This document shows, piece after piece, positions 4 to 61,870 of a stretch of DNA of 64,000 nucleotides. Location of the stretch: assembly GCA_016180195.1 (NCBI GenBank), contig JACPBS010000010.1, forward strand, positions 16,687 to 80,686, read 5' to 3'. Every line of letters begins with the position of its first letter. Position 1 is the stretch's first letter. A program made the translations under genes and the position numbers. The DNA is from Candidatus Woesearchaeota archaeon (GTDB lineage Archaea > Nanobdellota > Nanobdellia > Woesearchaeales > UBA10216). Below the pieces are notes generated by a model, which ran no database searches, had not been told where the DNA came from, and was given only the letters and a program-made list of their open reading frames with translations.

Positions 4-378
4 ATGTTAACGCAATCAAGGCCGAAAAGGAGCTCTTCAGGCTCCAGGTATATCAAGGCAAGGGATAAGCGGCTGTTTGAGTCTGGTAACGTGCCCACGC
101 ACACAAGGATTGGGGACCGGCAGACCAAGCTTGTAAGGGTCAAGGGTGGGGGCCTCAAGTTTAGGACGATAAATTCTAACATGGTTAATGTCCTTGATCC
201 GAAATCGAAGTCTTACAGGAAGGCAGCGATCAAGACAGTGGTTGACAACCCTGCAAGCAAGCACTTTATAAGGAGAAACATCATGACAAGAGGTACTGTT
301 ATCGAGACTGAGCTTGGCAAGGCAAGGGTCACTAACAGGCCTGGCCAGGAAGGAATGATAAACGCAGTCCTTATATGA
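4..378 (+). CDS. rps8e: 30S ribosomal protein S8e
   Basis: Translation (SRPKRSSSGSRYIKARDKR...GKARVTNRPGQEGMINAVLI) matches the S8e family end to end. Size about 124 aa. Confidence 0.85.
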   Translation: MLTQSRPKRSSSGSRYIKARDKRLFESGNVPTHTRIGDRQTKLVRVKGGGLKFRTINSNMVNVLDPKSKSYRKAAIKTVVDNPASKHFIRRNIMTRGTVIETELGKARVTNRPGQEGMINAVLI

Positions 379-1046
379 GATCTTTTTTTATTGAGGCAAG
401 GCTGAATAATAGCATTATCCTTTCTGATGAGCATCTTAGCGTGCTTCCCGCGAAAGTTGGACTTGCAGCTTCTGTGCAGCATGTTCACAGGATTGGCGAG
501 TTGAAGAAGCAGATAGAGAGTTCTGGAAGAGAGGCTGTGCTGTTAAAAGGCTTTCATTCCTTGCATGAAGGGCAGACCCTTGGCTGTGATTTTCCGACTG
601 CTGTTGAAGGGGTTGATGCCGTTGTCTTTGTTGGGACCGGGAAATTTCATTCGCTGGGTTTGTTGAAGGCGGGAAAGGCTGTCTTCATTTCTGACCCGGT
701 AAACATGACATTTCATAAGGCTGACTTGAAGGAGCATGAGAGGCATGAAAAAAGGAGGAAGGCTGCTGCCCTTAAATTCCTGCATTCAACTGAGATCGGT
801 GTTTTGGTCTCTACAAAGCCAGGCCAGCTCAATCTCAATGCTGCAGAGGCGCTGAAGGGCGTATTCAGGGAAAAGAATTTCTATTTCCTTTTGTTTGATA
901 CGGTTGATTTTTCAGAGCTCGAGAATTTTCCTTTTATTGAGTGCTATGTTAACACTGCCTGCCCAAGGATTATGGATGATTATGGCAAGTTTCCAAAGCC
1001 TGTTATCAACCTGGTGGAAGTCCTGAAATTGGCGGATGGTGGTTAA
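375..1046 (+). CDS. dph2: Dph2-like diphthamide synthesis radical-SAM enzyme, two-domain form (N-terminal domain absent)
   Basis: Strong similarity to archaeal Dph2 domains 2-3: FVGTGKFHSLGL, ELENFPFIECYVNTACPRIMDDYGKFPKPV. The ORF cannot extend upstream because it overlaps the S8e stop. Only 223 aa against about 340 aa for canonical Dph2. Confidence 0.6.
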   Translation: MRSFFIEARLNNSIILSDEHLSVLPAKVGLAASVQHVHRIGELKKQIESSGREAVLLKGFHSLHEGQTLGCDFPTAVEGVDAVVFVGTGKFHSLGLLKAGKAVFISDPVNMTFHKADLKEHERHEKRRKAAALKFLHSTEIGVLVSTKPGQLNLNAAEALKGVFREKNFYFLLFDTVDFSELENFPFIECYVNTACPRIMDDYGKFPKPVINLVEVLKLADGG

Positions 1047-1104: not shown

Positions 1105-1235
1105 TTTAGTCGTGCGCTGGGGAGGGTTGTTCCCCAATTTGAGCAAAGCTCAAATTGGCCCATTCAGCCGCAGCTGAATTGGGCTTCGGAAACCCCCAGA
1201 GCCTTTCCTACAGGAAAGGCGTCGCACCATAAGGA
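1105..1235. ncRNA. Structured element R1, a divergent member of the A/B repeat family (strand not determined)
   Basis: Perfect hairpins CCAAUUUGAGC-AAA-GCUCAAAUUGG, AUUCAGC-CGCA-GCUGAAU and GCCUUUCC-UACA-GGAAAGGC. They are flanked by GUGCG...CGCAC. Hairpin order and flanks parallel the insert of element A at 50040-50100, with compensatory base changes. Confidence 0.4.
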
Positions 1236-1276
1236 AAAGAACTTCAGAAAGCTAACTACTTAATTTTTATCCAAAC

Positions 1277-1288
1277 ATTTAAATAGGT
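1277..1288 (+). promoter_or_regulatory. TATA-like box (tttaaata) about 25 nt upstream of the aIF-1A ATG, consistent with a leaderless transcript
   Basis: AT-rich TATA-like motif at the canonical archaeal distance from the start codon at 1310. Confidence 0.3.
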
Positions 1289-1309: not shown

Positions 1310-1654
1310 ATGGGTTTGAAAAAGCAGCAGGAGGAGCAGCAGGAGGAACTGCAGCAGGAGATTAGCAGGACCAAGCTTCCTAGGGGAAAGGAAACTTTCG
1401 GGGTTGTCGAGCAGAGATTGGGTGGCACAAGGATGAAGACCCGGTGCCTGGATGGCAAGACCCGCGTCTGCAGGATTCCTGGAAGGCTTAAGAGGAAGCT
1501 TTGGGTCAGGGAGGGTGACATTGTGCTTGTCGAGCCCTGGGAGCTTTCAGGCGATGAAAAGGGGGATATAATTTTCAAGTACAGGAAGGCCCAGATACAG
1601 TGGCTTAAGAAGCAGGGCTATCTCAAGGGTATGGAGGAGTTTGAGGAGTTCTAG
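1310..1654 (+). CDS. eif1a: Translation initiation factor 1A (aIF-1A)
   Basis: GVVEQRLGGTRMKTRCLDGKTRVCRIPGRLKRKLWVREGDIVLVEPWE is the typical eIF-1A OB-fold sequence. Confidence 0.85.
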   Translation: MGLKKQQEEQQEELQQEISRTKLPRGKETFGVVEQRLGGTRMKTRCLDGKTRVCRIPGRLKRKLWVREGDIVLVEPWELSGDEKGDIIFKYRKAQIQWLKKQGYLKGMEEFEEF

Positions 1655-3368: not shown

Positions 3369-6300
3369 TCAAATATCTGATCTCTTGATTGTCAGTATCC
3401 TTATGATGCCATTTATAATCTTTTTGAAAAGATTCTCTTCAGCGCCCATTTCTTTTTTTTCGGGCCGGGCATGTTCCTCGGTGATGTTGATCATCACGTT
3501 GTTGGATTTTACCGTGTGTTTTTTGTTGAGGTAGGAAAAAGTAGCGGTTGCCTCAGGCAGCTCCATTTCGTTTGCCTTTATCTTGTATGAGACCTTTTCC
3601 TCTTTTCCGGGCGCGAGGGATATGTTCCATGCCCTGCCTGAGTCTTTCAGTTCAGCTTCGAGCGCTGATTCATGGGTGCTCCTTAAGGTCAGGGTGATTG
3701 TTATCTCGTCTCCTGCTTTTGCATCTTGCTTTGATGAGCTCTTTTCCAGCGATGCAAATGATTTTTCAGATACTTCAACCATGGGGCTCGTTTCTGCGGA
3801 TACTGTATAGTTGTGGTTCCCATAAACGTAGCTTGCAGTGGGCTTCTCAAGCAGTGTGCTGCCTGTTTTGGAAAGCGAGATGTTGGACTTCAGCGTTCTT
3901 TCACCTGTAAGCCCGGCAATAACCCACTGGCTTTCGCCGTCTGTTATTTTTACGTCAAGCGGGGCTTCCTGAAGGTTTATGACCCTTATGGCGATCTCTA
4001 TTGGATCTAAGTTGTTTGCCTTTTCAGGAGCTGTCTTCTCCAGCTTTAGAAGGGGTTTGCTTATAACCTCTATGGTTTTGGAGTTTGAGGCTGTGTATAG
4101 GCGCAGGTTTTGATAGGTGTACGTTGCAGTTGCAGGGGGTATTTCAAAAGGGCCTGGCTCGGGTATTGACATGGTGTCATTTCTCGAGTATTCGGAATTG
4201 GGTTGGACCTGTAAGCTGAACTTCTCGTTCCCATTGATGATCTCGGCGTTGGCAGCCTCGCTGCCTATATTCCTCACGTTAAGGGTTACATTGAACTTGT
4301 CAGTGTTGTTTGCCTTTTCGGATGAATTTTTTGTGAGGATAAGGGCAGGGCCGTAGATGGGGGTTGTCTTTACCTTCAGGGAGGTGGTGGTGTGGTTGTA
4401 AGTGTAGTTGCTTCCTTGTCCGTCGGTGTAGGTTAAGTATGGCTTTAGGAGCACGCGGGTATCATTGAGCTTGGGCCTTATCTTGTGCTTCGATGTCAGG
4501 TAAACAGATTCCCCGGGGTCTATGTCAGGGATCTCCATGCTGGTGATGCCTATGGTGTCGAATTCCGGCTGCAAGGGGAAATGCAGCACAACCCCTTTTG
4601 CGGTTCTCGTGTCGCTTGGGTTTCTTATGACATAGTTTATCTCGCTTTCGTGTCCGGTATAGAATTCAGTGTCTGGAAATGTTGATGTTACTGAAAGCGG
4701 GAATTTTGCTGGAAGCACGGTTATCTTTGTCTCTTTTGAGATATTGTAGTGGCGTATTTCGGAGAATAGGAATTCATTTCCTGAGTCTGAGTACTCTGCA
4801 TTTGTGCGGATCTGGAATGTTTTTTCCTGGTTGACTTTCGGGGCTGTCACCTCATACGTGTAGACTGTGAGGGTGTCTTTTTTTGGAATGCTGATAGATG
4901 ATGAGCTGGTTTGGCCGTATCGGTCGAATTCGGGCGGGATCGTGTCGAATACATTGACATTGTTTATCCCTGTCAGGCGTGGGTTGTTCATTGTTACGGT
5001 AAAGGTGAATGTCTCTCCGCTTTCAACCGAGGTTTTTGATGGTATGTGGTTTATGGTCAGGTCCCTGATGTTTGTTACAGATATGGTGCTCTTCAGGGAT
5101 TTGGCGAATTTTCCCCCGTTAATGTTGTATGTCATGTTGATGTCGATAGGAAAGCCTGTTGTCGAGGAGGTGTTTGGGGCGTAAATTTCCTTTTCGATCG
5201 CGAGCACCTGGACGCCCTTCCCTATCTCGCTGAAATATACATCGGGAAGGTAGCCTACTCCGGTGTATGCGGACACGAGAACATCCTTGATGGGGGCGTA
5301 TGGGTTGAGGTTCTGGACCCAGATCTTTGCCTTGAAAAGCTGGTTTGATTCTATGACTGCATCATTAATGTTTGTTCTTATGGCAACTCCGGCGTCGGAT
5401 ACCTTTACTTCCTTTTTTGTTTCCTGCATTTCAAGATTTTCCTGTGTTGTCAAGTCGGCATATGATGCCCTTATGATTATCTGGGACGCTCCAATGCTGC
5501 CGCTTGAAATGTCAAAAGTGAAAGGCTTGGAAAAGAACCTGTTATTGCTAAGGTTCCTTTTCCTGATCTCGCCAGACCACTTGAACATTCCCTTTCCTGT
5601 CTTTGTAAACTGAAGGGGAGGATAAACGGTGATGTCTGGGCTGAACTCGATTTCAACTGTTGCATTTATACTGTTGTTTCCTTTGTTCGTAATGTTTATC
5701 GTAAAATTATTTGGCTGGCCCACGTATGTTGATGTTTTCCCCACCCCTGATTCTATAAGGAGGAAGTGTGCTGCGTTGATTGTTTGCTCGGAGGAGTATG
5801 CGTTCCTGGTCACGTAACCATCAAAATAGGAAAGGGTTGCTTTTGTGACTTGTTTTGCCTGCTTCTTGGCCTTTATCTTGTATTCGATCTCTTTTGTGCC
5901 TGACCTGCCGATTATTCCTGACCAGGAGACCATGTGGTTTGAGGCGTATGCGCCGTCAACATCGTACACCTCGAACGAATCTGAAAAAGAATCTTGGAAC
6001 GAGGCGTTCCTTGCAACCCCTCCTGTATTTGTCAGGGTGACAGTGAATGTTGCCTCCTCTCCTACCACCAGCTCGCTTTTTGAAACCGATCTTGTAATTG
6101 TGATCGAGGGTATCGTTGAGATTGCCCTTATAGATATCCTTTTCTTCTTTGCGGTGTAGTCGAAGTCAATATTGTCAAGGCAGACTCTGAAATAATCCGT
6201 TGATTCGCAGCTGTTGTTCGTTATTTCCAGCGAGCCCTTTCCGTAATCGGCGATTATTCCGTTTTCCGAGAGGTGGATAAAAATGACCTGCTTGTCAACA

Positions 6301-18544: not shown

Positions 18545-19471
18545 TTACCTATTGCACTGGATATCAAACCTTGTGGGATTTGGAACAGCGGTCCTGAAAT
18601 AGTCGTATATTGTCCCATCAGAATGAAGATAGAAATAGTCGTATATTGTCCCATCAGAATGAAGATAGTATTGGGCATCTATGTATTGTGTTATTGAATT
18701 TGTACTAGGATCATAAAGTCCTATTTTTAGAATTGCTCCGTTTTTTCCTTCTAATCCAACTATCAATCTTCCCAAATCCCAGAAAGGCTTTGCAGTTTGG
18801 GAAGCATCCGTAGTTAAGCCTCCTTCACTCACCAAGTTCTTTCCTGCGGTTAATTCTCCTGCAAGTCGAGGTGTTTGTGGGTTTTGTATTCCGAAATCAA
18901 ATAATATAGTGGTGCTGTCTGTGAATAATGTAGATGGCGTAACCTTGACTACCCAGGCAGCAGCACTTGACGTTGTGATGTAATCATTAATGTTTCCTGT
19001 TGTGATGAAAACAGTTCCGTTCATTACCTTAACTTGGCCGTCAATTGCATCGGTGTATGTATCGCCGTAAACCATGATTGCTGTTGGGTTTGTTGAGTCG
19101 GCACAAACAAAGCTTGATTCAAGAAAAGCATAGTTCCTATTAGGAAGCGGTGTTGATGTAGGCGTCGCAGTAGCGGTTGGTGTATATGTTGGTATTGGTG
19201 TTGCTGTTGCGGTTCTTGTGCTTGTCGGGGTTGCTGTTGGGCTGGAATGCGGCGTTGGTGTGTCAAAATCCTTGCTTACAGAGGGGAGATATACTAAGAA
19301 CTGCTGTCCTGGCTTTTGAGTACTGTAACCCTTATTTGCGCTGTTGCTGTTCTGATAGGCCTCCACGCCTCCGTTTCCGGAAAGAGCAGCGATAACTGCA
19401 GCGGTAGCTAGGGTAGCTAAGGTAAGCCCTGCTCTCAGTTCAATTCGCCTTAATAAGTTGTCAAGCGTCAT
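18545..19471 (-). CDS. Secreted protein with a Thr/Pro-rich linker
   Basis: N-terminal anchor or signal, then a PTPTATPTSTRTATATP linker and a beta-rich domain. Contains an exact 12-aa tandem duplication (YLHSDGTIYDYF x2). Confidence 0.5.
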   Translation of the reverse strand: MTLDNLLRRIELRAGLTLATLATAAVIAALSGNGGVEAYQNSNSANKGYSTQKPGQQFLVYLPSVSKDFDTPTPHSSPTATPTSTRTATATPIPTYTPTATATPTSTPLPNRNYAFLESSFVCADSTNPTAIMVYGDTYTDAIDGQVKVMNGTVFITTGNINDYITTSSAAAWVVKVTPSTLFTDSTTILFDFGIQNPQTPRLAGELTAGKNLVSEGGLTTDASQTAKPFWDLGRLIVGLEGKNGAILKIGLYDPSTNSITQYIDAQYYLHSDGTIYDYFYLHSDGTIYDYFRTAVPNPTRFDIQCNR

Positions 19472-26659: not shown

Positions 26660-27823
26660 ATGCCCGTATACAGCCCGGAAGAAGACACTTATATGATTCT
26701 GGATGAGGTGAAGAAGCATGCATCCGGAAAAGTCCTGGAGATAGGAACCGGCTCAGGGATAATTGCGGTTGCTGCTGCTAAAAATAAGGATGTTGAATCA
26801 GTTACAGCTGTTGACATTGACAGGGAAGCCATTGAGGCTGCTTCAGGACTGGCTAAAAGGGAAAAAGTCAGGATCAGGTTCGTTCACGGCGACTTGTTCG
26901 CGAATATAAAAGGCAAATTTGACACGATAATTTTCAACCCTCCTTATCTCCCGCAGGATGAGGGAATTGAGGATGTGGCTATTTACGGTGGGAAAAAAGG
27001 GTATGAAACCATTGAAAGGTTTCTTGCCTCCAGCAGAAGTCACCTGGCTGAAAATGGAAAAATACTGCTTTTGTTCAGCAGCCTGACGAAAAAAGAAAGG
27101 GTCGATGCAATGATCGCCGATAGCTGCCTTGAATTTCAACCCTTGTCCGAAAAGCCCCTTTTTTTTGAAAGGCTTTATGTCTATCTTATTGAAAAATCGG
27201 CGCTGCTTAAGGAACTTGAGAATAAGGGGGTCCAGCATTTGAAAAGGTTTGCAAAGGGGCATAGGGGCATAATTTACTTGGGAAGGCTGAAAGGCAGGAA
27301 GGTCGCAGTAAAGGCAGAGCGAAAGCACATGGGCGCCAGATGCAGGGTATTGAATGAGGTGAGGTGGCTCGAGAGGCTTAACAAAAAAGGAATAGGTCCT
27401 AAGCTGTTGTTCGGAAGCAATGATTATTTTGTTTATGAGTTTGTTGAGGGCAGATTTATTGAGGATTTTATTAAGGAGAGCGGCAGGAAAAAGATTGTTG
27501 CCGCAATAAAAAATTTGCTGCATCAGTGCTACTTGATGGATGCGCTAAAGGTGAACAAGGAGGAGATGCATCATCCGGTGAAGCACATCATAGTTTCAAA
27601 GGGAAAGCCTGTCATGATAGATTTTGAAAGGTGCAGGTCAACGGAGAAGCCGAAGAATGTCACTCAGTTCCTTCAGTTTTTGTCCGGCGGCCATCTGGCA
27701 AGTCTGTTGCTAAAAAAAGGAATTAATTTTGACAAGAATGAATTAAGGGATATGGCGAAGGAATATAGCCTGAAAAGGGCAGGCATAAAAAGGCTGGTTG
27801 ATGGGATATTTCATGTATTTTGA
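26660..27823 (+). CDS. HemK/Mtq2-like N5-glutamine methyltransferase fused to a Bud32/RIO-type protein-kinase-like domain
   Basis: N-terminal half has VLEIGTGSGIIAV (motif I) and IIFNPPYLP (motif IV, NPPY). C-terminal half has GHRGIIYLG, VAVK and VMIDFE, which are Bud32/RIO-like. The usual HxD catalytic Asp is not apparent (MHHPVKHII). Confidence 0.65.
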   Translation: MPVYSPEEDTYMILDEVKKHASGKVLEIGTGSGIIAVAAAKNKDVESVTAVDIDREAIEAASGLAKREKVRIRFVHGDLFANIKGKFDTIIFNPPYLPQDEGIEDVAIYGGKKGYETIERFLASSRSHLAENGKILLLFSSLTKKERVDAMIADSCLEFQPLSEKPLFFERLYVYLIEKSALLKELENKGVQHLKRFAKGHRGIIYLGRLKGRKVAVKAERKHMGARCRVLNEVRWLERLNKKGIGPKLLFGSNDYFVYEFVEGRFIEDFIKESGRKKIVAAIKNLLHQCYLMDALKVNKEEMHHPVKHIIVSKGKPVMIDFERCRSTEKPKNVTQFLQFLSGGHLASLLLKKGINFDKNELRDMAKEYSLKRAGIKRLVDGIFHVF

Positions 27824-27990
27824 TATGTCAGAAATTGCAAATAAACCTAAAGGTTTATTGCACAATAAACGCCAAGCGTTTATTTGTGCTCTCAACGCAA
27901 ACTGTTCGCTTTAGCGCGCAGTAAGGACGAGCAATTTCTGATCATGAATCAAGAACACGCCCCGGGCTTTAGCCCGGCGGTTCTTGACAA

Positions 27991-28329
27991 TCAATTCAAT
28001 CCCAGGCTTGTTCTAAGTGCTTCATCAACCTTTTCCATAAAATCAACATCCAGTTTCCCTATTTTTTTCAGAAGTCTTGTTTTATCAACGGCTCTTATTT
28101 GGTTTAAAAGGGCTTTTGAATCCTTGTCAAGCCCAAAACCCTTTGGAATCAAAACTTCAAATGGATAAGAGTAATCAGTATTTTTTGAGCTTACAGGTGC
28201 AATTATTGTTGTATCGCTGTATTTGTTTCCAAAATCATTTTGAATAATTATTGCCGGCCTTGATTTATTAATCTCATGCCCCAAAGTGGGATTAAGATTC
28301 ACGATCCATATTTCTCCTCTATTTACCAT
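27991..28329 (-). CDS. mazF: MazF/PemK-family mRNA interferase toxin
   Basis: GEIWIVNLNPTLGHEINKSRPAIIIQND...IIAPVSS...LNQIRAVDKTRL is the classic MazF fold sequence. Confidence 0.8.
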   Translation of the reverse strand: MVNRGEIWIVNLNPTLGHEINKSRPAIIIQNDFGNKYSDTTIIAPVSSKNTDYSYPFEVLIPKGFGLDKDSKALLNQIRAVDKTRLLKKIGKLDVDFMEKVDEALRTSLGLN

Positions 28330-28547
28330 TCTTCAAACTCTGAAGAGGCAGGTTCCCATTCCTTCAAGGTTTCCAGGTTGGATTTCCCCAAGCTTTTGTA
28401 GCCAGTTATTAGTTCTTTTTTCAACTCCATTTTCTTCACCTTCTTAATCAGTCCTGAGATAATCTCGTCATAAGTCTCATTATCTTTTTTTAGCTCATCC
28501 AGGGCAAATTTGGTTTTATAGTGTATTTTCACTGTTGTAACATTCAT
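28323..28547 (-). CDS. Putative cognate antitoxin of MazF
   Basis: Small ORF immediately upstream, overlapping the toxin start by 7 nt. Start set at MNVTTVKIHY, right after a TATA box and direct repeats. Confidence 0.5.
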   Translation of the reverse strand: MNVTTVKIHYKTKFALDELKKDNETYDEIISGLIKKVKKMELKKELITGYKSLGKSNLETLKEWEPASSEFEEW

Positions 28548-28569
28548 GGTATACTTTAGGTATACTTTT
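28548..28569 (-). promoter_or_regulatory. Tandem direct repeat (GGTATACTTT x2, containing the GTATAC palindrome) between the TATA box and the antitoxin start; candidate autoregulatory operator
   Basis: Repeat seen directly. The TATA-like box catataaa lies just upstream on the minus strand. Confidence 0.35.
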
Positions 28570-28690
28570 GCATATAAAAATATTTTCATTTCGAATTGCA
28601 GATTAATAAACATTAGCCAAAAAAAACCGTAAATTTGGGCTATGGAATCGGAAAAGCTTTTAAAAATGAAAACCAGTTTTTCATTCCTTC

Positions 28691-34322: not shown

Positions 34323-36230
34323 ATGTCAAAGGCATATTTTGCTGAGCACATGGGGAAGGATGATTTCCTGAAGCTGGCAGTGAAGTTTAATCCGAATGCA
34401 AATGTGAATCTTATTGGCAAGGCTTTTGATTTCGCTGAGCAGAGCCATCGTGGCCAGAAGAGGCTTTCTGGAAGGGATTATTTCCTTCATTGCAAGGAAG
34501 TTGCGTACATGCTTGTTAAGCTGAGGCTGGATACAGCCACGATTTGTGCAGGACTGCTCCATGATGTTCTTGAGGATTCTGACAGGAAGGGTGAAGAGAT
34601 CAGGAGAACTTTCGGCGAGGAAATCCATTATCTTGTTGTTGCCCTGACCAAGACGAAGAACATAAGCTTGCAGGCAAGCGATGAGGAAAGGGCGGAAAAC
34701 ATCAGGAAGGTTCTTCTTGCATCTATCAAGGATATAAGGGTGATTTTCATCAAGCTTGCTGACAGGCTCCATAATATGCGCACCCTTAAGTATCAGCCTT
34801 ATGATAAGCAGGTTGCTGTTTCAAGGGAGACCCTTGATATCTATGTTCCGATTGCGTATAAGCTTGGTATGTACAGGATAAAGTCTGAGCTTGAAGATCT
34901 GTGCCTTAAGCATCTTAACCCTTCTGTGTATATGGAGCTGAAGGTGAGGATTGACAAGAAGAAGGAGGAGAGGGAGCAGGAGGTTAAGTCTGTGATCAAG
35001 ACTGTGAAGAACATTCTAAGTTCAAGGGGGATTAAGGCAAAGATCAGCGGGAGGGCTAAGAATTTTTTCAGCATCTACAAGAAGATGCTCAGGAAAGGTG
35101 TCTCGTTTGAGGAGATTCACGACCTGTCCGCGATAAGGATCATTGCTGATAATCCTGATGACTGTTACAGGATTCTCGGCATAATCCATTCGACTTGGAC
35201 TCCTTTGGTCAAGAGGTTTGATGATTATATCGCATTTCCGAAGCCGAACATGTACCAGTCACTCCATACAGAGGTTTTGATCAACAAGAAGCCTGTTGAG
35301 GTTCAGATCAGGACTTGGAAGATGCATCACATTGCCGAAGAGGGGTTTGCCGCTCATTGGAGGTATAAGGATACGGAGAGGGATAAGAGGTTCGATCGGA
35401 AAATAGCGTGGCTCAAGCAGATTCTGGAATGGAGGATGTCCTCAAATGCCAAGGAATTCCTGGAGAACCTTAAGATTGATCTTTTCAAGGACGAGATTTA
35501 CGCTATCACCCCAAAAGGGGATCCTATATCGCTTCCCGAGAAGGCAACTCCGGTTGATTTTGCCTTCGCTGTTCATACGGATATAGGCAACCGCTGTGTC
35601 AGGGCCAAGGTGAATAATGCAATCGTTCCTTTGGATCATGAGCTCAAAAGTGGCGATGTTGTTGAGATAATAACTTCAAAGAATGCCGTTCCTTCAAGGA
35701 ACTGGCTGAAGTTCGTGAAGACAACCTTGGCTAAGAGCAAGATAAGGCACGGGCTTGGTATTCTGCTTCCTGAAGCTCAGTCTGAAAAGGAAATTGCTGA
35801 TGAGGAGCAGGTGATCTCAAGGATTGATTTTGAGAAGAGCTCCATGCTGAAGCTTTCCAGGTGTTGCCTGCCCAGGTATGGTGACCAGTTAACAGGCTAC
35901 AGGATGAAGGATGGTAAGATTGCTGTTCATAAGGCAGGCTGTGATAATTTCAGGCAGCTTGATTCAGGCAGGAAGATGTTGCTGGGTTGGAAGGGCATGG
36001 AGAGCTCGGGGACCGTGAAGCTCCGTGCAGAGGTGATTGAGAGCAGTGGGATGTTCCAGGAGGTTCTTGGTTCGCTTACGAGCAGCGGTGTAAAGATAGA
36101 ATCAATCCGTGCAAAGACGAGCAAGAACAGGCTGTTGATATTGCTCGAAGTGAAGCCTGGAAGCGAGTTGGGAAAGGCGATTGACACCCTAAAAAAGGTT
36201 GAGAACGTGATTGAGGTCAGGATAGAATAG
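34323..36230 (+). CDS. Full-length RelA/SpoT homologue (HD hydrolase + (p)ppGpp synthetase + TGS + ACT)
   Basis: HD motif (HRGQKR...LLHDVLED). Synthetase motifs (RAKNFFSIYKKM, YIAFPKPNMYQSLHT, EVQIRTWKMHHIAEEGFAAHWRYK). TGS (IYAITPKGD) and a C-terminal ACT. Confidence 0.85.
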   Translation: MSKAYFAEHMGKDDFLKLAVKFNPNANVNLIGKAFDFAEQSHRGQKRLSGRDYFLHCKEVAYMLVKLRLDTATICAGLLHDVLEDSDRKGEEIRRTFGEEIHYLVVALTKTKNISLQASDEERAENIRKVLLASIKDIRVIFIKLADRLHNMRTLKYQPYDKQVAVSRETLDIYVPIAYKLGMYRIKSELEDLCLKHLNPSVYMELKVRIDKKKEEREQEVKSVIKTVKNILSSRGIKAKISGRAKNFFSIYKKMLRKGVSFEEIHDLSAIRIIADNPDDCYRILGIIHSTWTPLVKRFDDYIAFPKPNMYQSLHTEVLINKKPVEVQIRTWKMHHIAEEGFAAHWRYKDTERDKRFDRKIAWLKQILEWRMSSNAKEFLENLKIDLFKDEIYAITPKGDPISLPEKATPVDFAFAVHTDIGNRCVRAKVNNAIVPLDHELKSGDVVEIITSKNAVPSRNWLKFVKTTLAKSKIRHGLGILLPEAQSEKEIADEEQVISRIDFEKSSMLKLSRCCLPRYGDQLTGYRMKDGKIAVHKAGCDNFRQLDSGRKMLLGWKGMESSGTVKLRAEVIESSGMFQEVLGSLTSSGVKIESIRAKTSKNRLLILLEVKPGSELGKAIDTLKKVENVIEVRIE

Positions 36231-47390: not shown

Positions 47391-47921
47391 ATGCGAAAAG
47401 AGGTCTTATCTAGTTTCCTGACTGAAGCCCAGGAGGTTAGGGCTGAGCTGGGAATTGCATTGAAGGATATCTATGAAGAGTTTGATGAGCATCTTGAGGC
47501 TATAAACCAGTCAACAGAGGAGGTTCAGGCTAACCATGAATACCTCTGTAGGCTTGATTGCAAGATTGACAGGCTGGGCGAGAGGGTTGAGCAGATTGCT
47601 TTGACGCTTAAGAATGCGGGCATGAATTTTGAGGAGGCAAGGATAGAGGATATCAAGCTGAGTGAAAAGGAAAAGGATGTCTTTCTCGTGATGTACACTG
47701 CAGACAAAATGCTTTCTTATAGGGACATATCTTCAGGGATCAGGGAAAGCGAGTTTCTGGTGCGTGGGCATATCACGAACATGATCCATAAAGGCATTCC
47801 TATAAAGAAGAAATACATCAACAATGAGGTGAGGATGCACCTCGATGTCCGCTTTAGGGAGCATCAGGCCAAGACTAACTTTTTGGGGATAAGCCAGAAG
47901 ACAGTAAGGGAGTTTGGCTAA
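47391..47921 (+). CDS. Hypothetical protein with an N-terminal coiled coil and a possible C-terminal wHTH
   Basis: ORF only. Composition-based. Confidence 0.4.
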   Translation: MRKEVLSSFLTEAQEVRAELGIALKDIYEEFDEHLEAINQSTEEVQANHEYLCRLDCKIDRLGERVEQIALTLKNAGMNFEEARIEDIKLSEKEKDVFLVMYTADKMLSYRDISSGIRESEFLVRGHITNMIHKGIPIKKKYINNEVRMHLDVRFREHQAKTNFLGISQKTVREFG

Positions 47922-47929
47922 CTCCCTTA

Positions 47930-49929: not shown

Positions 49930-50175
49930 GGCGAATTGGGTTTTACAAGCAGAATACGTCTTCTAACAGTTCTTCTAATAGTGCCAACAACTGTTGGCGA
50001 TCCGGGGGATGCCCCATCCGGGGTGGCGAGAAGCTCCCAAATTGAGCAAAGCTCAATTGGGCCAAATCACGCTGAAAGCGTGATTTGGGTTTTTGCCAAA
50101 CCAAAAAAGCGTCCAACCATTGTTGTTGGCACAATCAAGGAAAACAGGCAACAATTTTTTACTCATGCTGCGGAG
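49930..50175. repeat. Structured repeat element A (candidate ncRNA or MITE), 54 nt upstream of the argS ATG
   Basis: Shares two near-identical blocks (about 70 nt and 60 nt) and the ACUCAUGCUGCGGA terminus with element B. Contains an 11-bp closing helix and an R1-like hairpin insert. Confidence 0.5.
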
Positions 50176-51947: not shown

Positions 51948-54900
51948 ATGGAAGGGCTTGATTTTAAGACTACTGCTGATATCAAGGTTCCACAGAGGAT
52001 TGTGGACCAGGTGATTGGTCAGGAGGACGCTGTCAGGACTATTAGGAAGGCTGCAAAGCAACGGAGGCATGTTCTTCTCATAGGCAATCCTGGAACTGGC
52101 AAGTCAATGTTGGGGATGGCCCTTGCTGAGCTTCTTCCTAAGGAGAAGCTTGTTGATGTAATTTCCTTTTCAAACCCTAATGACGAGAACCAGCCTTTGA
52201 TCAGGACGGTTCCGGCTGGCCAGGGCAGGGAGCTCGTGACTAAGTCCAGGCTTGAGGCGACGAATGTCTTCAAGTACCAGAACGCAATTATGCTTGCTCT
52301 TCTCATAGTGACGATCATTTCGCCATGGTGGGCATTTAACCATTATACAAACGTTGGGGGTTATCTTCTTGGCGGTTTGATGTTCATCGCTTTTTTCCTT
52401 GGAGGGATGGTTTTTTTCGCGAGCTTCATCCTGTTCATTAATTTTGGCAGGAAGGCTGATAACAGGGGCAGGATTCCGAAGGTCATAGTTGATAATTTCA
52501 GCAAGAAGCAGGTTCCTTTTTTTGACGCAACCGGGGCTCATGCAGGTGCATTGCTTGGCGATGTATTGCATGATCCTTTCCAGTGTATCCCTGGCGACGA
52601 ACTTATTCATTTGCCTAATGGAAAGCCGGTTAAGATCAAGGATCTGGTTGATCCATTTTTAGATTCAGATGGCGAGAAGGAACTTCGTGATCAGGATCAA
52701 TTCGATGTGTTGTCCGGCATAAAATCTGGTTTCGGATTCACTTCTGCGAAAGTTTTTAGGGTTTTCAGAAGATTTTTTGATGATGAACTGATTGTTTTGG
52801 AGACTTCGAGGGGTTATAAGATCAGGGTTACTCCGAACCATCCTGTTGCCATTTATTCGCCTGCGGGCCATATTGACTTCATTCCTGCAGCCTCAATTTC
52901 AAGAAAAATGAGATGTGTTGTTCCAAACAGGATTCCTATCACGGCTAGTGAAAGGTTAAGCCCTTCTTTTATTAATTTCCTTGCAGAAACCTTGTCAGAT
53001 GGCTGCATAAGGGAGAGGTCTGTTGCTTTTAAAGTTAGAACAAAATGGAAGGCAGAGGCATATAAAGCCACGATCAAGGCTATTGGTCATGTTCCGAGAA
53101 TAATAAACAGGGGCGGCGATATTGAAATTTATTTAAATTCTGCAGAACTTGTAAGAACCCTTTTAAAAATGGGGGTAAAAAAGAATGGGAAAAAAGAACT
53201 TCCTGAAGTATTATTTGGCTTGCCAAAAGAGGGCGTATTTAGATTTTTGGCCCGTTACATCTCGATAGATGGATATGTGGGTAAGCAGGGTCAGTTTGAA
53301 ATAGTTTCCAAGGAGCTTATTCCAGATATTACTGCGCTCCTCCTTAAGATAGGTGTTAGGGCAAAAATAAGGCATAGGCCTGACCACGGGTTTGGGTTGG
53401 CAAAGGGCATAATTCAGCCACGAATTATCTTTTCAGATTTTGAGTTTGCAGGAGTTTATAGGGAGTTGACGATTAATCCAACTCATAAGGCAAACCTGGA
53501 TTCCTATTTGAGTTCGACCAGTTTCAGGCATGTTTCGAAAGATGATGTGATTCCTGTTGAATTTGGCTGGATGGAAAGGATCAGGCTAAAGGCCGGGCTT
53601 AGTAAGGGTAAAACTCATGATGCATATTATGCCTTAAACCCGGAAGTCCCAAGCCATTCGGCTCCAACACGGCGTTTGCTTCAAAAGGTTTTGGATAGGT
53701 TCCTTTCTTTTACCAACGATGAAGACCTTTTTAGGCTGCGTGATGTTGTGCAGGGCACTTTTGATTTTGATGAAATTGTTTCCGTCTCAAAGGAGAAATT
53801 CTTGGGGCATGTTTATAATCTAACCACCAGTACTGGTACTTATGTGGTTGCGCAGTTGCTCACCCATAATTCCGGCGGCCTTGGAACGCCTGCCCATGAG
53901 AGGGTTGTTGCTGGAATGATCCATAAGGCGCACATGGGTGTTCTTTTTATTGATGAGATAGCAACGCTTCAGCCTTCGACCCAGCAGGAGCTTTTGACTT
54001 CGCTGCAGGAAGGCAAGTATTCCATAACAGGTCAGAGTGAGAGGTCTGCTGGCGCCATGGTCAGGACTGAGTCAGTTCCGTGTAATTTCATTCTTGTTGC
54101 TGCCGGGAATATAGAGACAATCAGGCAGATGCACCCTGCATTAAGGTCAAGGGTTAGGGGTTATGGGTATGAGGTTTTTATGAAGGAGACCATGCCTGAT
54201 ACTGAGGAAAACAGGCTTAAGATCGCGAATTTTGTTGCTCAGGAGGTGTCCAAGGACAAGAAGATACCTCATTTCAGCAGGGATGCTGTGGATCAGATAA
54301 TAATTGCTGCCAGGAGGGCTGCTAACAGGAAGGGTCATTTGACGCTTCATCTTAGGGAGCTTGGAGGGCTTGTCCGTGCAGCAGGTGACCTGGCTACAGA
54401 GGAAAGTTCCAAGTTTGTTGAAAAGAAGCACGTCCTCAATGCGAAGAAGATGGCCAGAACCCTTGAGCAGCAGATCGCTGACAAGATAATTGAGCACAGG
54501 AAGGAGTATGAGGTCATTATTACCTCTGGCAAGAAAATTGGCAGGGTGAATGGGCTTGCGGTTCTTGGGGGCGGCACATCTTATTCAGGTCTTATCATGC
54601 CTATCGAGGCCGAGGTCACGCCTGGCGGGGAGGCTAAGGAAATTATTGCTACAGGCAAGCTGGGGGAGATTGCCAAAGAGGCTGTGTTGAATGTTTCTGC
54701 TATCATAAAGAAGTTTTTCGGAGAGGATATCAGGAAGACCCGTGATATCTATGTCCAGTTCCTCCAGACCTATGGGGAGGGTGTTGAGGGGGATTCTGCA
54801 AGCATCGCGGTGGCAACAGCAATAATCTCTGCATTGAAGGGCATCCCGGTAAAGCAGGATGTTGCGATGACTGGCAGCCTTTCTGTTCGCGGAGAGGTGC

Positions 54901-55118
54901 TTCCTGTTGGAGGGGTCTCATCAAAGGTTGAGGCTGCGCTTGAGGCGGGCATAATGAATGTGATTGTCCCGAGGACTAATCTCAAGGATATCATCATGGA
55001 CAAGTCGGATTACTCTAAAATAAGGATAATTCCCGTTGATAACATCGGTGAAGTTCTTTCAGAGGCCCTTGAGTGGAAGGGTAATGAGCACATCCTGAAG
55101 AAGATCTCTTATGCTTGA
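51948..55118 (+). CDS. lonB: Archaeal membrane-bound Lon protease (LonB) interrupted by an intein
   Basis: Walker A LLIGNPGTGKS. Two TM helices inserted in the AAA module. SGGLGTPAHERV and GVLFIDEI motifs. Ser-Lys protease domain (DSASIAVATAI...K). Confidence 0.9.
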   Translation: MEGLDFKTTADIKVPQRIVDQVIGQEDAVRTIRKAAKQRRHVLLIGNPGTGKSMLGMALAELLPKEKLVDVISFSNPNDENQPLIRTVPAGQGRELVTKSRLEATNVFKYQNAIMLALLIVTIISPWWAFNHYTNVGGYLLGGLMFIAFFLGGMVFFASFILFINFGRKADNRGRIPKVIVDNFSKKQVPFFDATGAHAGALLGDVLHDPFQCIPGDELIHLPNGKPVKIKDLVDPFLDSDGEKELRDQDQFDVLSGIKSGFGFTSAKVFRVFRRFFDDELIVLETSRGYKIRVTPNHPVAIYSPAGHIDFIPAASISRKMRCVVPNRIPITASERLSPSFINFLAETLSDGCIRERSVAFKVRTKWKAEAYKATIKAIGHVPRIINRGGDIEIYLNSAELVRTLLKMGVKKNGKKELPEVLFGLPKEGVFRFLARYISIDGYVGKQGQFEIVSKELIPDITALLLKIGVRAKIRHRPDHGFGLAKGIIQPRIIFSDFEFAGVYRELTINPTHKANLDSYLSSTSFRHVSKDDVIPVEFGWMERIRLKAGLSKGKTHDAYYALNPEVPSHSAPTRRLLQKVLDRFLSFTNDEDLFRLRDVVQGTFDFDEIVSVSKEKFLGHVYNLTTSTGTYVVAQLLTHNSGGLGTPAHERVVAGMIHKAHMGVLFIDEIATLQPSTQQELLTSLQEGKYSITGQSERSAGAMVRTESVPCNFILVAAGNIETIRQMHPALRSRVRGYGYEVFMKETMPDTEENRLKIANFVAQEVSKDKKIPHFSRDAVDQIIIAARRAANRKGHLTLHLRELGGLVRAAGDLATEESSKFVEKKHVLNAKKMARTLEQQIADKIIEHRKEYEVIITSGKKIGRVNGLAVLGGGTSYSGLIMPIEAEVTPGGEAKEIIATGKLGEIAKEAVLNVSAIIKKFFGEDIRKTRDIYVQFLQTYGEGVEGDSASIAVATAIISALKGIPVKQDVAMTGSLSVRGEVLPVGGVSSKVEAALEAGIMNVIVPRTNLKDIIMDKSDYSKIRIIPVDNIGEVLSEALEWKGNEHILKKISYA
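52584..53870 (+). mobile_element. Intein (about 429 aa) with a LAGLIDADG homing-endonuclease domain inside LonB
   Basis: Begins CIPGDELIHL. Two LAGLIDADG-like motifs (NFLAETLSDGCI, FLARYISIDGYVG). Ends VVAQLLTHN followed by Ser. Extein junction restores DPFQ|SGGLGTPAH. Confidence 0.8.
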
Positions 55119-57487: not shown

Positions 57488-58336
57488 ATGAATCTGGATG
57501 GGATAGTTTCAGCTTATGAAGTCAGGGATAGAGTTGCGAGGCTTGGTGAATGGCCTTTCCTGAAATGCCTGGCTTACGCTGCTGCAGTTGCGAATTCATT
57601 TTCTCCCTTACTTGTTAATGCTCTGTCAAATCAGGATTATGGGCAGGCCATGATTCAGGCTGCTGTAAATGGAGCAATATCTTTCCCTGCATCATATGTT
57701 TTTTCCCGAATGCTTGTAAGGTACCGGTGTGAATCCATGGTGGATGAGCTTACAGGCCTTCCCAATCTTAGGGCGCTGAAGCAGAGAATGCCAGAGGAAC
57801 TGAGCAGGGCATATAGGCAGCAGTCTCCTGTTTTTTTCCTGCAGATGGATCTTAAGGGGCTGAAATACGTAAATAATAATTTCGGGCTTGATGCCGGAAA
57901 TCAGCTGCTTCTGGAAGCTGTTTTGCGGATGAAGGAGCAGTTGAGGCCTTACGACTTTGTCGGAAGGTGCAGTACAACCGGGGGTTCTGATGAGTTCGTG
58001 GCAGTGCTTCCTTTGGGGTCCAATTACCCTAACAATGGCTTGTCTGGCTACGCATATTCTGTTTGCGAAAGAATAGTTGATTCAGGGAGTAGATCTCCTA
58101 TCGAATTCATGAATGGCAGGTTTTCTGAGAGGATTTCCCCCGAATTCAGGTGCGGAGCCCTCGTATACAGTCCGCCGGAGAAAAATGGGCATGCATTCGA
58201 TTCATGCGGGGAATCAGCAGAGATCCTTAAACAGCTAGGAATCCTGCTTGTAGACGTGAAGAGCCGCAACGAGATCATAGTTAGGGAATTTGGCAGAAAA
58301 GAAAATGTTCATAATTTTCCAACAGGAAAATTATGA
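57488..58336 (+). CDS. GGDEF-like domain protein (degenerate GGSDEF motif) with a hydrophobic N-terminus
   Basis: DELTGLPNLRAL, FLQMDLKGLKYVNNNFGLDAGNQLL and GRCSTTGGSDEFVAVLP are collinear with diguanylate cyclase domains. Confidence 0.65.
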   Translation: MNLDGIVSAYEVRDRVARLGEWPFLKCLAYAAAVANSFSPLLVNALSNQDYGQAMIQAAVNGAISFPASYVFSRMLVRYRCESMVDELTGLPNLRALKQRMPEELSRAYRQQSPVFFLQMDLKGLKYVNNNFGLDAGNQLLLEAVLRMKEQLRPYDFVGRCSTTGGSDEFVAVLPLGSNYPNNGLSGYAYSVCERIVDSGSRSPIEFMNGRFSERISPEFRCGALVYSPPEKNGHAFDSCGESAEILKQLGILLVDVKSRNEIIVREFGRKENVHNFPTGKL

Positions 58337-61599: not shown

Positions 61600-61870
61600 A
61601 CTATTCGCAGAATAGCCTCCTCCATAAGAGCAGCCCGGTCTAACAGTTGTTCTAATAGTGCCAACAACGGTTGGCGATCCGGGGGATGCCCCATCCGGGG
61701 TGGCGAGAGCTTTTTTCGCCCAGCAAAAAAGCGTCCAACCATTGTTATTGTTGGCACAATCAAGGAAAACAGGCAAAAATTTTCAGATAAATTTCGCCTT
61801 GGGTTCAAATCCCCACCCTTTAGGTCGAAGATTGCTCCGATCAGCGGATTTTTGTTACTCATGCTGCGGA
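61600..61870. repeat. Structured repeat element B (candidate ncRNA or MITE), 53 nt upstream of a DUF2156-like gene
   Basis: Same two conserved blocks and terminus as element A. Instead of the hairpin insert it carries a tRNA T-arm-like segment GGGUUCAAAUCCCC near its 3' end. Confidence 0.5.

Follow-up and report, generated by a model that had tools for sequence, protein, structure and literature searches.

The intergenic element R1 (positions 1112-1227, 117 nt) of the window, by which we mean the entire 64,000-nt stretch of DNA analysed here, taken from a Candidatus Woesearchaeota (DPANN) metagenome-assembled genome (MAG), is most plausibly interpreted as one nested member of a family of small palindromic repeats found in Woesearchaeota. 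We regard R1 as a nest of small non-coding palindromic DNA repeats and its central unit, a double-hairpin module, as a non-autonomous mobile element, and give this reading a probability of roughly 0.6. As the module comes and goes among closely related genomes, it looks like selfish mobile DNA and not like a regulator of the nearby aIF-1A gene. The genomes of DPANN archaea are very small and presumed to be poor in selfish DNA, and a full-text literature search returned nothing specific on hairpin, MITE or REP repeats in DPANN or Woesearchaeota.

Architecture of R1

R1 is a genuine, non-random and highly structured element. Minimum-free-energy folds of both RNA strands and of the DNA describe it as a composite palindrome to which no strand is assigned. 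The closing stem pairs GTGCG (1112-1116) with CGCAC (1223-1227), as the original prediction had proposed, and could be extended by a C1117-G1221 pair if T1222 is bulged. Within it, an inner enclosing stem of CTGGGG (1117-1122) and CCCCAG (1194-1199) spans 1117-1199, with the double-hairpin module in its loop and a trivial GGG/CCC hairpin (1124-1134) likewise inside. The first hairpin of the module, h1 (1134-1158, CCAATTTGAGC AAA GCTCAAATTGG), consists of 11 perfect base pairs and an AAA loop. The second, h2 (1158-1184, GCCCATTCAGC CGCA GCTGAA-T-TGGGC), comprises 11 bp, a CGCA loop and a bulged T at 1179 in its 3' arm. Together, h1 and h2 make up the core of R1 (1134-1184), which is the 52-nt module. 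A third hairpin, h3 (1201-1220, GCCTTTCC TACA GGAAAGGC), follows 3' of the inner stem and is the anticipated 8-bp stem with a UACA loop. The four perfect hairpins that had been described are thus three strong ones, of which one is bulged, and the trivial GGG/CCC pairing as the fourth.

The RNA fold of R1 is better than those of all 200 dinucleotide shuffles (z = -6.1 on the plus and -5.9 on the minus strand), and no shuffle is as good as the DNA fold (z = -6.5). The predicted pairs comprise 43 Watson-Crick and 0 G-U pairs.

R1 in the spacer between dph2 and aIF-1A

The 5' side of R1 is occupied by the rpS8e gene (4-378) and a short dph2-like gene (375-1046, plus strand), which matches positions 90-288 of 302 of PF01866. 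On the 3' side lies the aIF-1A gene (1310-1654, plus strand; PF01176, E = 1.3e-19), identical to MBI2133803.1; its best matches in species-representative genomes come from Woesearchaeota, with 81-86% identity. A DsbA-like gene is located nearby on the minus strand. R1 starts 66 nt past the dph2 stop codon and ends at 1227, about 45 nt 5' of the conserved aIF-1A TATA box (1278-1285). This box is part of a BRE/TATA promoter (CCAAACATTTAAATAG, 1271-1286, plus strand) that is kept in relatives, and the motif AAACATTTAWATA is found at -44 to -31 from the aIF-1A start in the window and in seven relatives (L009, L013, L017, L100, L101, L103 and L106). The claimed location between the short dph2-like gene and the aIF-1A promoter is therefore correct.

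Since R1 lies wholly upstream of the TATA box, it is outside the aIF-1A 5' UTR. At the orthologous position upstream of aIF-1A, R1 is absent in L100, L101, L103, L106, L013 and L107, and the similarity between the window and L101 ends just 5' of the aIF-1A promoter motif. A role of R1 as a cis-regulatory leader or riboswitch of aIF-1A was rejected on account of its position upstream of the promoter and its absence from the orthologous loci. In the window, the spacer (1046-1310) holds R1 and nothing else. Close relatives carry YdjM and a minus-strand gene there, L107 has YdjM only, and L017 shows additional genes together with two hairpin clusters. These differences in gene content mark the dph2-aIF-1A spacer as a variable spot. 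R1 is specific to the lineage of the window; it is probably dispensable for aIF-1A expression, and its place between dph2 and the promoter is probably incidental.

A double-hairpin module shared among loci

The module is defined by two adjacent hairpins of about 26 nt each, or approximately 52-54 nt in total. Each hairpin is built from a 3-4 bp foot, one bulged base, a 7-9 bp stem and a loop of 3-5 nt. Hairpin 1 usually has its bulge, an A, in the 5' arm, and hairpin 2 has a bulged T in the 3' arm; owing to this mirror-image arrangement the module reads alike on both strands. R1 shows the pattern in part: h2 carries the bulged T (1179), and h1 is perfect because its 3' arm contains a matching extra T.

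Scanning the window and 85 fetched loci (445 kb in all) for hairpins of at least 10 bp with at most one bulge yielded 52 hairpins, compared to 16.6 +/- 2.9 in dinucleotide shuffles. Adjacent hairpin pairs were seen 17 times and never in the shuffles, and 12 of these 17 pairs showed the pattern of a 5'-arm bulge followed by a 3'-arm bulge, for which the shuffles again gave 0. G-U pairs accounted for 2.8% of the 433 predicted pairs, as opposed to 13% in shuffles.

A covariance model of the module, with R1 among its training sequences, placed the unit in R1 at 1133-1183, with 61.7 bits on the plus and 45.8 bits on the minus strand, and scored the copy in a second repeat of the window, repeat A, at 65.5 bits. 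Copies outside the training set were found at 27836-27886 of the window (21.2 bits, E = 0.005), in L017 (1610-1660, E = 2e-9) and in L103 (3556-3607, E = 1.3e-10). MAFFT failed to align the AT-rich modules of L057, L079 and window position 27836 with the others, so the model is biased towards h1 of the CCCAATTTGAGC type.

Only three modules are present in the 64-kb window. The second copy (50036-50088, no strand assigned) is a 53-nt insertion in the loop of the hairpin GGCGA..TCGCC of repeat A. The third (27836-27889) is divergent and starts 13 nt past a stop codon; together with one more hairpin, it forms a 114-nt composite (27828-27941, no strand assigned; DNA fold z = -6.0) that is closed by an 11-bp outer stem (TCAGAAATTGC/GCAATTTCTGA) and sits between convergent genes. 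This third module lies between a methyltransferase gene and mazF, which contradicts the proposal that each family member is located upstream of a translation-related gene. Modules of other genomes adjoin lspA, DsbA, TFS, Nudix, HisRS and membrane-protein genes in both orientations. They occur between tandem, convergent and divergent genes, and their relation to genes is not fixed. As a side observation, the MazF toxin gene and a putative antitoxin gene (27991-28613) directly adjoin the third composite.

The 22-mer core of h1 (CCAAWTTGAGCAAAGCTCAAWT), a hairpin whose sequence recurs in repeat A, had only 5 exact matches among 241 million metagenome records, and the five contigs are otherwise without similarity to the window. 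Like the three modules in 64 kb, this low number gives no sign of a high copy number and counts against the mobile reading. Each of them carries a second hairpin of different sequence 3' of h1 (5' in L089), and the hairpin pair is usually found within a variable outer stem. Viral contigs had 0 matches to the h1 pattern, whether in its original or in a relaxed form, and 0 to the core sequence of repeats A and B. No shared target sequence or element terminus could be defined for the module.

Gain, loss and nesting of the module

Between repeat A and its paralogue B, the module is a precise 53-nt indel with no duplicated flank, and the host hairpin GGCGA..TCGCC is intact in B. Replication slippage or deletion could be an alternative origin of such indels between palindromes. 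In L017, a relative whose aIF-1A is 85% identical and whose synteny is conserved, a 54-nt module (3717-3770, corresponding to 18 codons) is located 10 nt past the stop codon that precedes lspA; the window has no module at this site. This module is in frame at the 5' end of lspA and would add 18 residues if an upstream ATG were used. Four genomes (L100, L101, L103 and L106) share the 90% aIF-1A cluster of the window. In L100, L101 and L106, no module lies within 6.3 kb, and L103 has a module downstream of aIF-1A with nothing R1-like upstream. Its h1 equals that of repeat A save for a compensated foot, which is CCC/GGG in A and CGC/GCG in L103.

Composites of about 115 nt, in which an outer stem surrounds the module and often one further hairpin is added, also recur as whole units. 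L090 and L091 have a 114-nt composite in common, with 96% identity and differences mainly in the loops; it is bordered by 11-bp terminal inverted repeats and unrelated flanks that show no duplication. Similar composites are R1 (117 nt), window 27828-27941 (114 nt), L090 (114 nt) and L017 2330-2445, with z-scores of the DNA folds between -5.9 and -7.4. A composite in L092 (1500-1700) has a 21-nt direct repeat (CCAAATATGCAAACATTTCTC) on either side; flank duplication is not seen in the remaining copies.

The module is mostly found in the loop of another hairpin, with a variable outer stem in R1, repeat A, L017 (2330-2445 and 1480-1730), L090-L093 and L103. At L017 2330-2445, the loop of a bulged hairpin accommodates an entire module and a second bulged hairpin comes next, and L017 1480-1730 displays several levels of nesting. 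Hairpins with a GCTTTAG-type loop adjoin modules in the window (27895-27985) and in L057 (1230-1390), for example CCGGGC TTTA GCCCGG inside CAAGAAC/GTTCTTG, and may be a separate element type. One such copy in L057 (CGCGC/GUGCG) contains a G-U pair.

Relation of R1 to repeats A and B

Repeats A (approximately 49962-50160) and B (approximately 61639-61785) share two blocks at 97% identity and are distinguished by indels: A contains the 53-nt module insert (50036-50088), and B contains a separate 68-nt insert farther downstream. R1 matches the insert of A over 34 nt at 85%, and a gap-tolerant alignment of the two has z = 11.7. Outside the module, R1 and B show a collinear but weak alignment (z = 2.55, p ~0.02; four control spacers, z -0.8 to 0.7) through the blocks CCCC, AGAGC-hairpin-GCGTC, ACCAT, AAGGAAAA and TTCAGA, in which h3 matches the B hairpin GCTTTTTT..AAAAAAGC. 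The parallels to A that had been noted hold for its insert; the shared start of block 2 (AAGGCGTCGCACC/AAAGCGTCCAACC) is present but weak.

R1 differs from both repeats by lacking their 11-bp terminal inverted repeat GTGCCAACAAC and their core GGGGGATGCCCCATCCGGGG. A covariance model of the A/B frame, built from B and from A without the module, recovered only B (174 bits) and A (108 bits) in the window; even without filters and with E values up to 10 allowed, it gave no match at R1. Under the refuting condition set by the original prediction, membership of R1 in the A/B repeats could therefore not be demonstrated. In turn, the module model found no unit in B. The membership of R1 in one family with A and B, as suggested by the original prediction, is upheld for the module common to R1 and the insert of A, but not for the frame, since B is without the module and the A/B frame model misses R1. 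A common origin of the R1 and A/B frames is no more than a possibility.

The two repeats show several further features. Their 11-bp terminal inverted repeat (GTGCCAACAAC..GTTGTTGGCAC) is accompanied by alternative local or long-range pairings, and their common sequence runs on to TTACTCATGCTGCGGA, just 5' of each downstream promoter. A and B look like a MITE- or SMR-like element, or else a duplicated upstream region. The A/B core motif GGGGRTGCCCCATCCGGGG (window 61680-61700) is found at 95% over 20 nt in a distant Woesearchaeote (L040, 3425-3455), where it forms the center of a hairpin of about 170 nt with three perfect long-range stems (z = -8.9). The 68-nt insert of B (61785-61855) contains a tRNA T-arm-like TTGGGTTCAAATCCCCA, followed by CCCTTTAG, and may be a tRNA fragment or the remnant of an attachment site.

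Structured RNA as an alternative

R1 and its relatives might instead constitute a structured non-coding RNA or RNA module, such as a protein-binding or stabilizing 3' UTR of the S8e-dph2 transcript, with its pairing under selection. We consider this unlikely. The fold score (z = -6) agrees with such an RNA, as do the bulges, whose place and base are kept while the stems covary among copies; compensatory differences in perfect stems would also be expected of a selected structure. R1, A and B further point in one direction, and the next start codon follows each of them after 81-98 nt when the extra insert of B is discounted. An AT-rich AATAAAAAA (1073-1081), located some 30 nt 5' of R1, might serve as a TATA box. 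However, the stems are almost purely Watson-Crick paired and the module is equally good on both strands, R1 is missing at the orthologous locus in all four of the closest relatives, and modules occur in both orientations and also between divergent genes. The module is, moreover, an indel between paralogues that are 97% identical.

Searches for known RNAs also speak against an RNA reading. Neither the window nor six loci had an Rfam match that reached the gathering score, and ARAGORN detected no tRNA or tmRNA anywhere in the 64-kb window. At permissive E-values, R1, A, B and 27780-28010 gave only weak matches to unrelated snoRNA and sRNA families, plus one to HEARO. The HEARO match (27808-27988; 17.5 bits compared to a gathering score of 83) was treated as noise, because the hairpin-rich locus L057 gave equally weak unrelated matches; L057 and four further loci gave no match to HEARO.

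Assembly evidence at R1

Nine independent Logan contigs, assembled from eight runs, stop or start at the edges of the R1 interior, and none crosses it (approximately 1119-1197). Contigs carrying dph2 end at 1118 (two) and 1122 (one), and those carrying aIF-1A start at 1198 (three), 1185 (one) and 1276 (one). The R1 interior at 1123-1184 is consequently attested by the window's own assembly only. The breaks are suggestive of repetition or strain polymorphism of the interior. Hairpins alone do not break such assemblies, given that two Logan runs (L104 and L105) yielded contigs that span the L103-type module. At A and B, the Logan contig ends disagree with a simple k = 31 repeat model, so these breakpoints are usable only qualitatively.

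In part, R1 could be a product of the assembly itself, in which dph2 and aIF-1A contigs were joined via a repeated hairpin cluster and the intervening DNA was collapsed. The uncrossed segment 1123-1184 and the presence of YdjM and another gene between dph2 and aIF-1A in close relatives are compatible with such a join, which we nonetheless hold to be quite improbable. The arms at the independent left and right contig ends, GTGCGCTGGGG and CCCCAG...CGCAC, are complementary to each other, as would be the case for a palindrome cut in two, and this argues for both ends being parts of the same element. The genes of this spacer also vary anyway, as seen in the order dph2-YdjM-aIF-1A of L107 and the extra genes of L017. 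A homologue search for YdjM of the window's strain found none traceable to the window's sequencing runs, and the closest Logan candidates were two short ones from other runs or projects.

Protein-binding sites and terminators

A further alternative treats the palindromes as double-stranded DNA sites for a dimeric protein, with functions as operator, in chromatin or insulation, or in recombination, and R1 as several such sites clustered 5' of the aIF-1A promoter. The exact 11-3-11 palindrome of h1, which is identical across several genomes, and the location upstream of a promoter would suit this view. Yet stem sequences are unrelated among most hairpins of the family, which share geometry alone, and a single-base bulge is meaningless in duplex DNA. 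Copies also reside where convergent genes have their 3' ends and, in one case, at a gene's 5' end, and they are not kept at orthologous promoters. On balance, binding sites of this kind are very improbable.

The least probable of these alternatives, that the hairpins are transcription terminators or mRNA 3'-end stabilizers of the upstream gene, is consistent with R1 lying 66 nt past the dph2 stop codon and the 27836 module 13 nt past a stop codon between convergent genes, but archaeal intrinsic termination relies on oligo-T tracts and none follows the R1 hairpins, the L017 module at 1610 is located between divergently transcribed genes, and that at 3717 lies between an upstream stop codon and the lspA start in an operon-like pair.

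Proposed insertion mode and known systems

For the reading of the module as non-autonomous mobile DNA, we propose that it inserts without target duplication and that its folded single-stranded DNA would be recognized by an enzyme supplied in trans. Insertion may occur preferentially into single-stranded hairpin loops, and this proposed preference would account for copies inside other hairpins and for nested clusters such as R1. R1 itself would then represent an older palindromic frame, possibly a degenerate relative of A/B, whose GGGG/CCCC hairpin loop was later invaded by the module. A Pfam scan of the roughly 48 open reading frames of the window found no transposase, integrase, HUH/Y1 or RAYT protein.

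The nearest precedents in behavior, by analogy, are PATE and SMR-A elements, REP and REPIN sequences, and mitochondrial double-hairpin elements. In Haloquadratum walsbyi, terminal-only PATEs of 52 bp consist of two palindromes and cause no target duplication; SMR-A elements of about 110 bp have inverted terminal repeats and insert into the palindromes of other elements, likewise with no target duplication (PMC3119063). The module resembles PATEs in size and plan, being archaeal, non-coding and palindrome-based with 52-54 nt compared to 52 bp. SMR-A elements, in turn, may be likened to the R1-type composites (114-117 nt compared to about 110 bp), which also nest in palindromes. PATEs differ in their host phylum and in that their palindromes derive from IS605-type ends, whereas the module has mirror-image bulges and no IS200/IS605 gene nearby. 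Subterminal imperfect palindromes at both ends and no target-site duplication, the hallmarks of IS200/IS605-derived PATEs and MITEs, apply here as well, in that neither the A-B junctions nor the L090/L091 flanks show a duplication. The same-polarity hairpins and matching resident IS ends of IS200/IS605 derivatives are not seen: the module is reverse-complement symmetric, and no resident IS was found.

REP, REPIN and BIME sequences are short imperfect extragenic palindromes in opposite-polarity pairs and mosaics, which are mobilized by RAYT and read as folded single strands (PMC3116915, PMC2817692, PMC3733652). The likeness to the module lies in the paired short palindromes, their extragenic position and their clustering into mosaics. 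The module differs, however, in that it has no GTAG/CGTC tag, its two hairpins do not pair into one long REPIN hairpin, and the open reading frames of the window include no RAYT. With regard to the tag (PMC3733652), R1 has neither GTAG nor CGTC at its palindrome ends, and the feet read CCCA, CACA, TGCA, CGCA and similar. The mitochondrial DHE of Allomyces and RHE of sponges consist of 2-3 adjacent hairpins, are intergenic and occasionally located in genes, and are patchy among close relatives, with no flanking duplications, conserved stems and variable loops (PMC2800124). These elements belong to eukaryote organelle genomes, and the analogy concerns behavior only.

More tentatively, and at odds clearly below even, we suggest that the module represents a previously undescribed class of structure-recognized mobile element in DPANN. 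Such a class would be characterized by a 52-nt strand-symmetric pair of hairpins with A and T bulges, duplication-free insertion into loops, and self-nesting clusters in otherwise streamlined genomes, which would indicate hot spots where genes are gained and lost, the dph2-aIF-1A spacer among them. If the mobile reading is true, self-nesting hairpin repeats would account for the assembly breaks that recur in such MAGs and for their spurious "structured RNA" candidates, and they would provide markers of strain-level variation. The family would also point to an enzyme that recognizes bulged DNA hairpins, and it would counsel caution against calling strong folds beside translation genes regulatory RNAs.

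Further features of the window

Several features of the window outside the repeats were recorded as well. The LonB-type protease gene (51948-55118) carries an intein with a LAGLIDADG homing-endonuclease domain. A RelA/SpoT-type protein with HD, RelA_SpoT, TGS and ACT domains (34323-36230) and a GGDEF-domain protein (57488-58336) are encoded, both of which are unusual for a small-genome archaeon. A perfect 36-nt tandem duplication (18596-18667) is contained within the open reading frame 18545-19471. Finally, isolated perfect hairpins are found at gene ends, namely one of 12 bp at 58309-58336, which overlaps the stop codon of the GGDEF gene, and one of 10 bp at 47905-47929.
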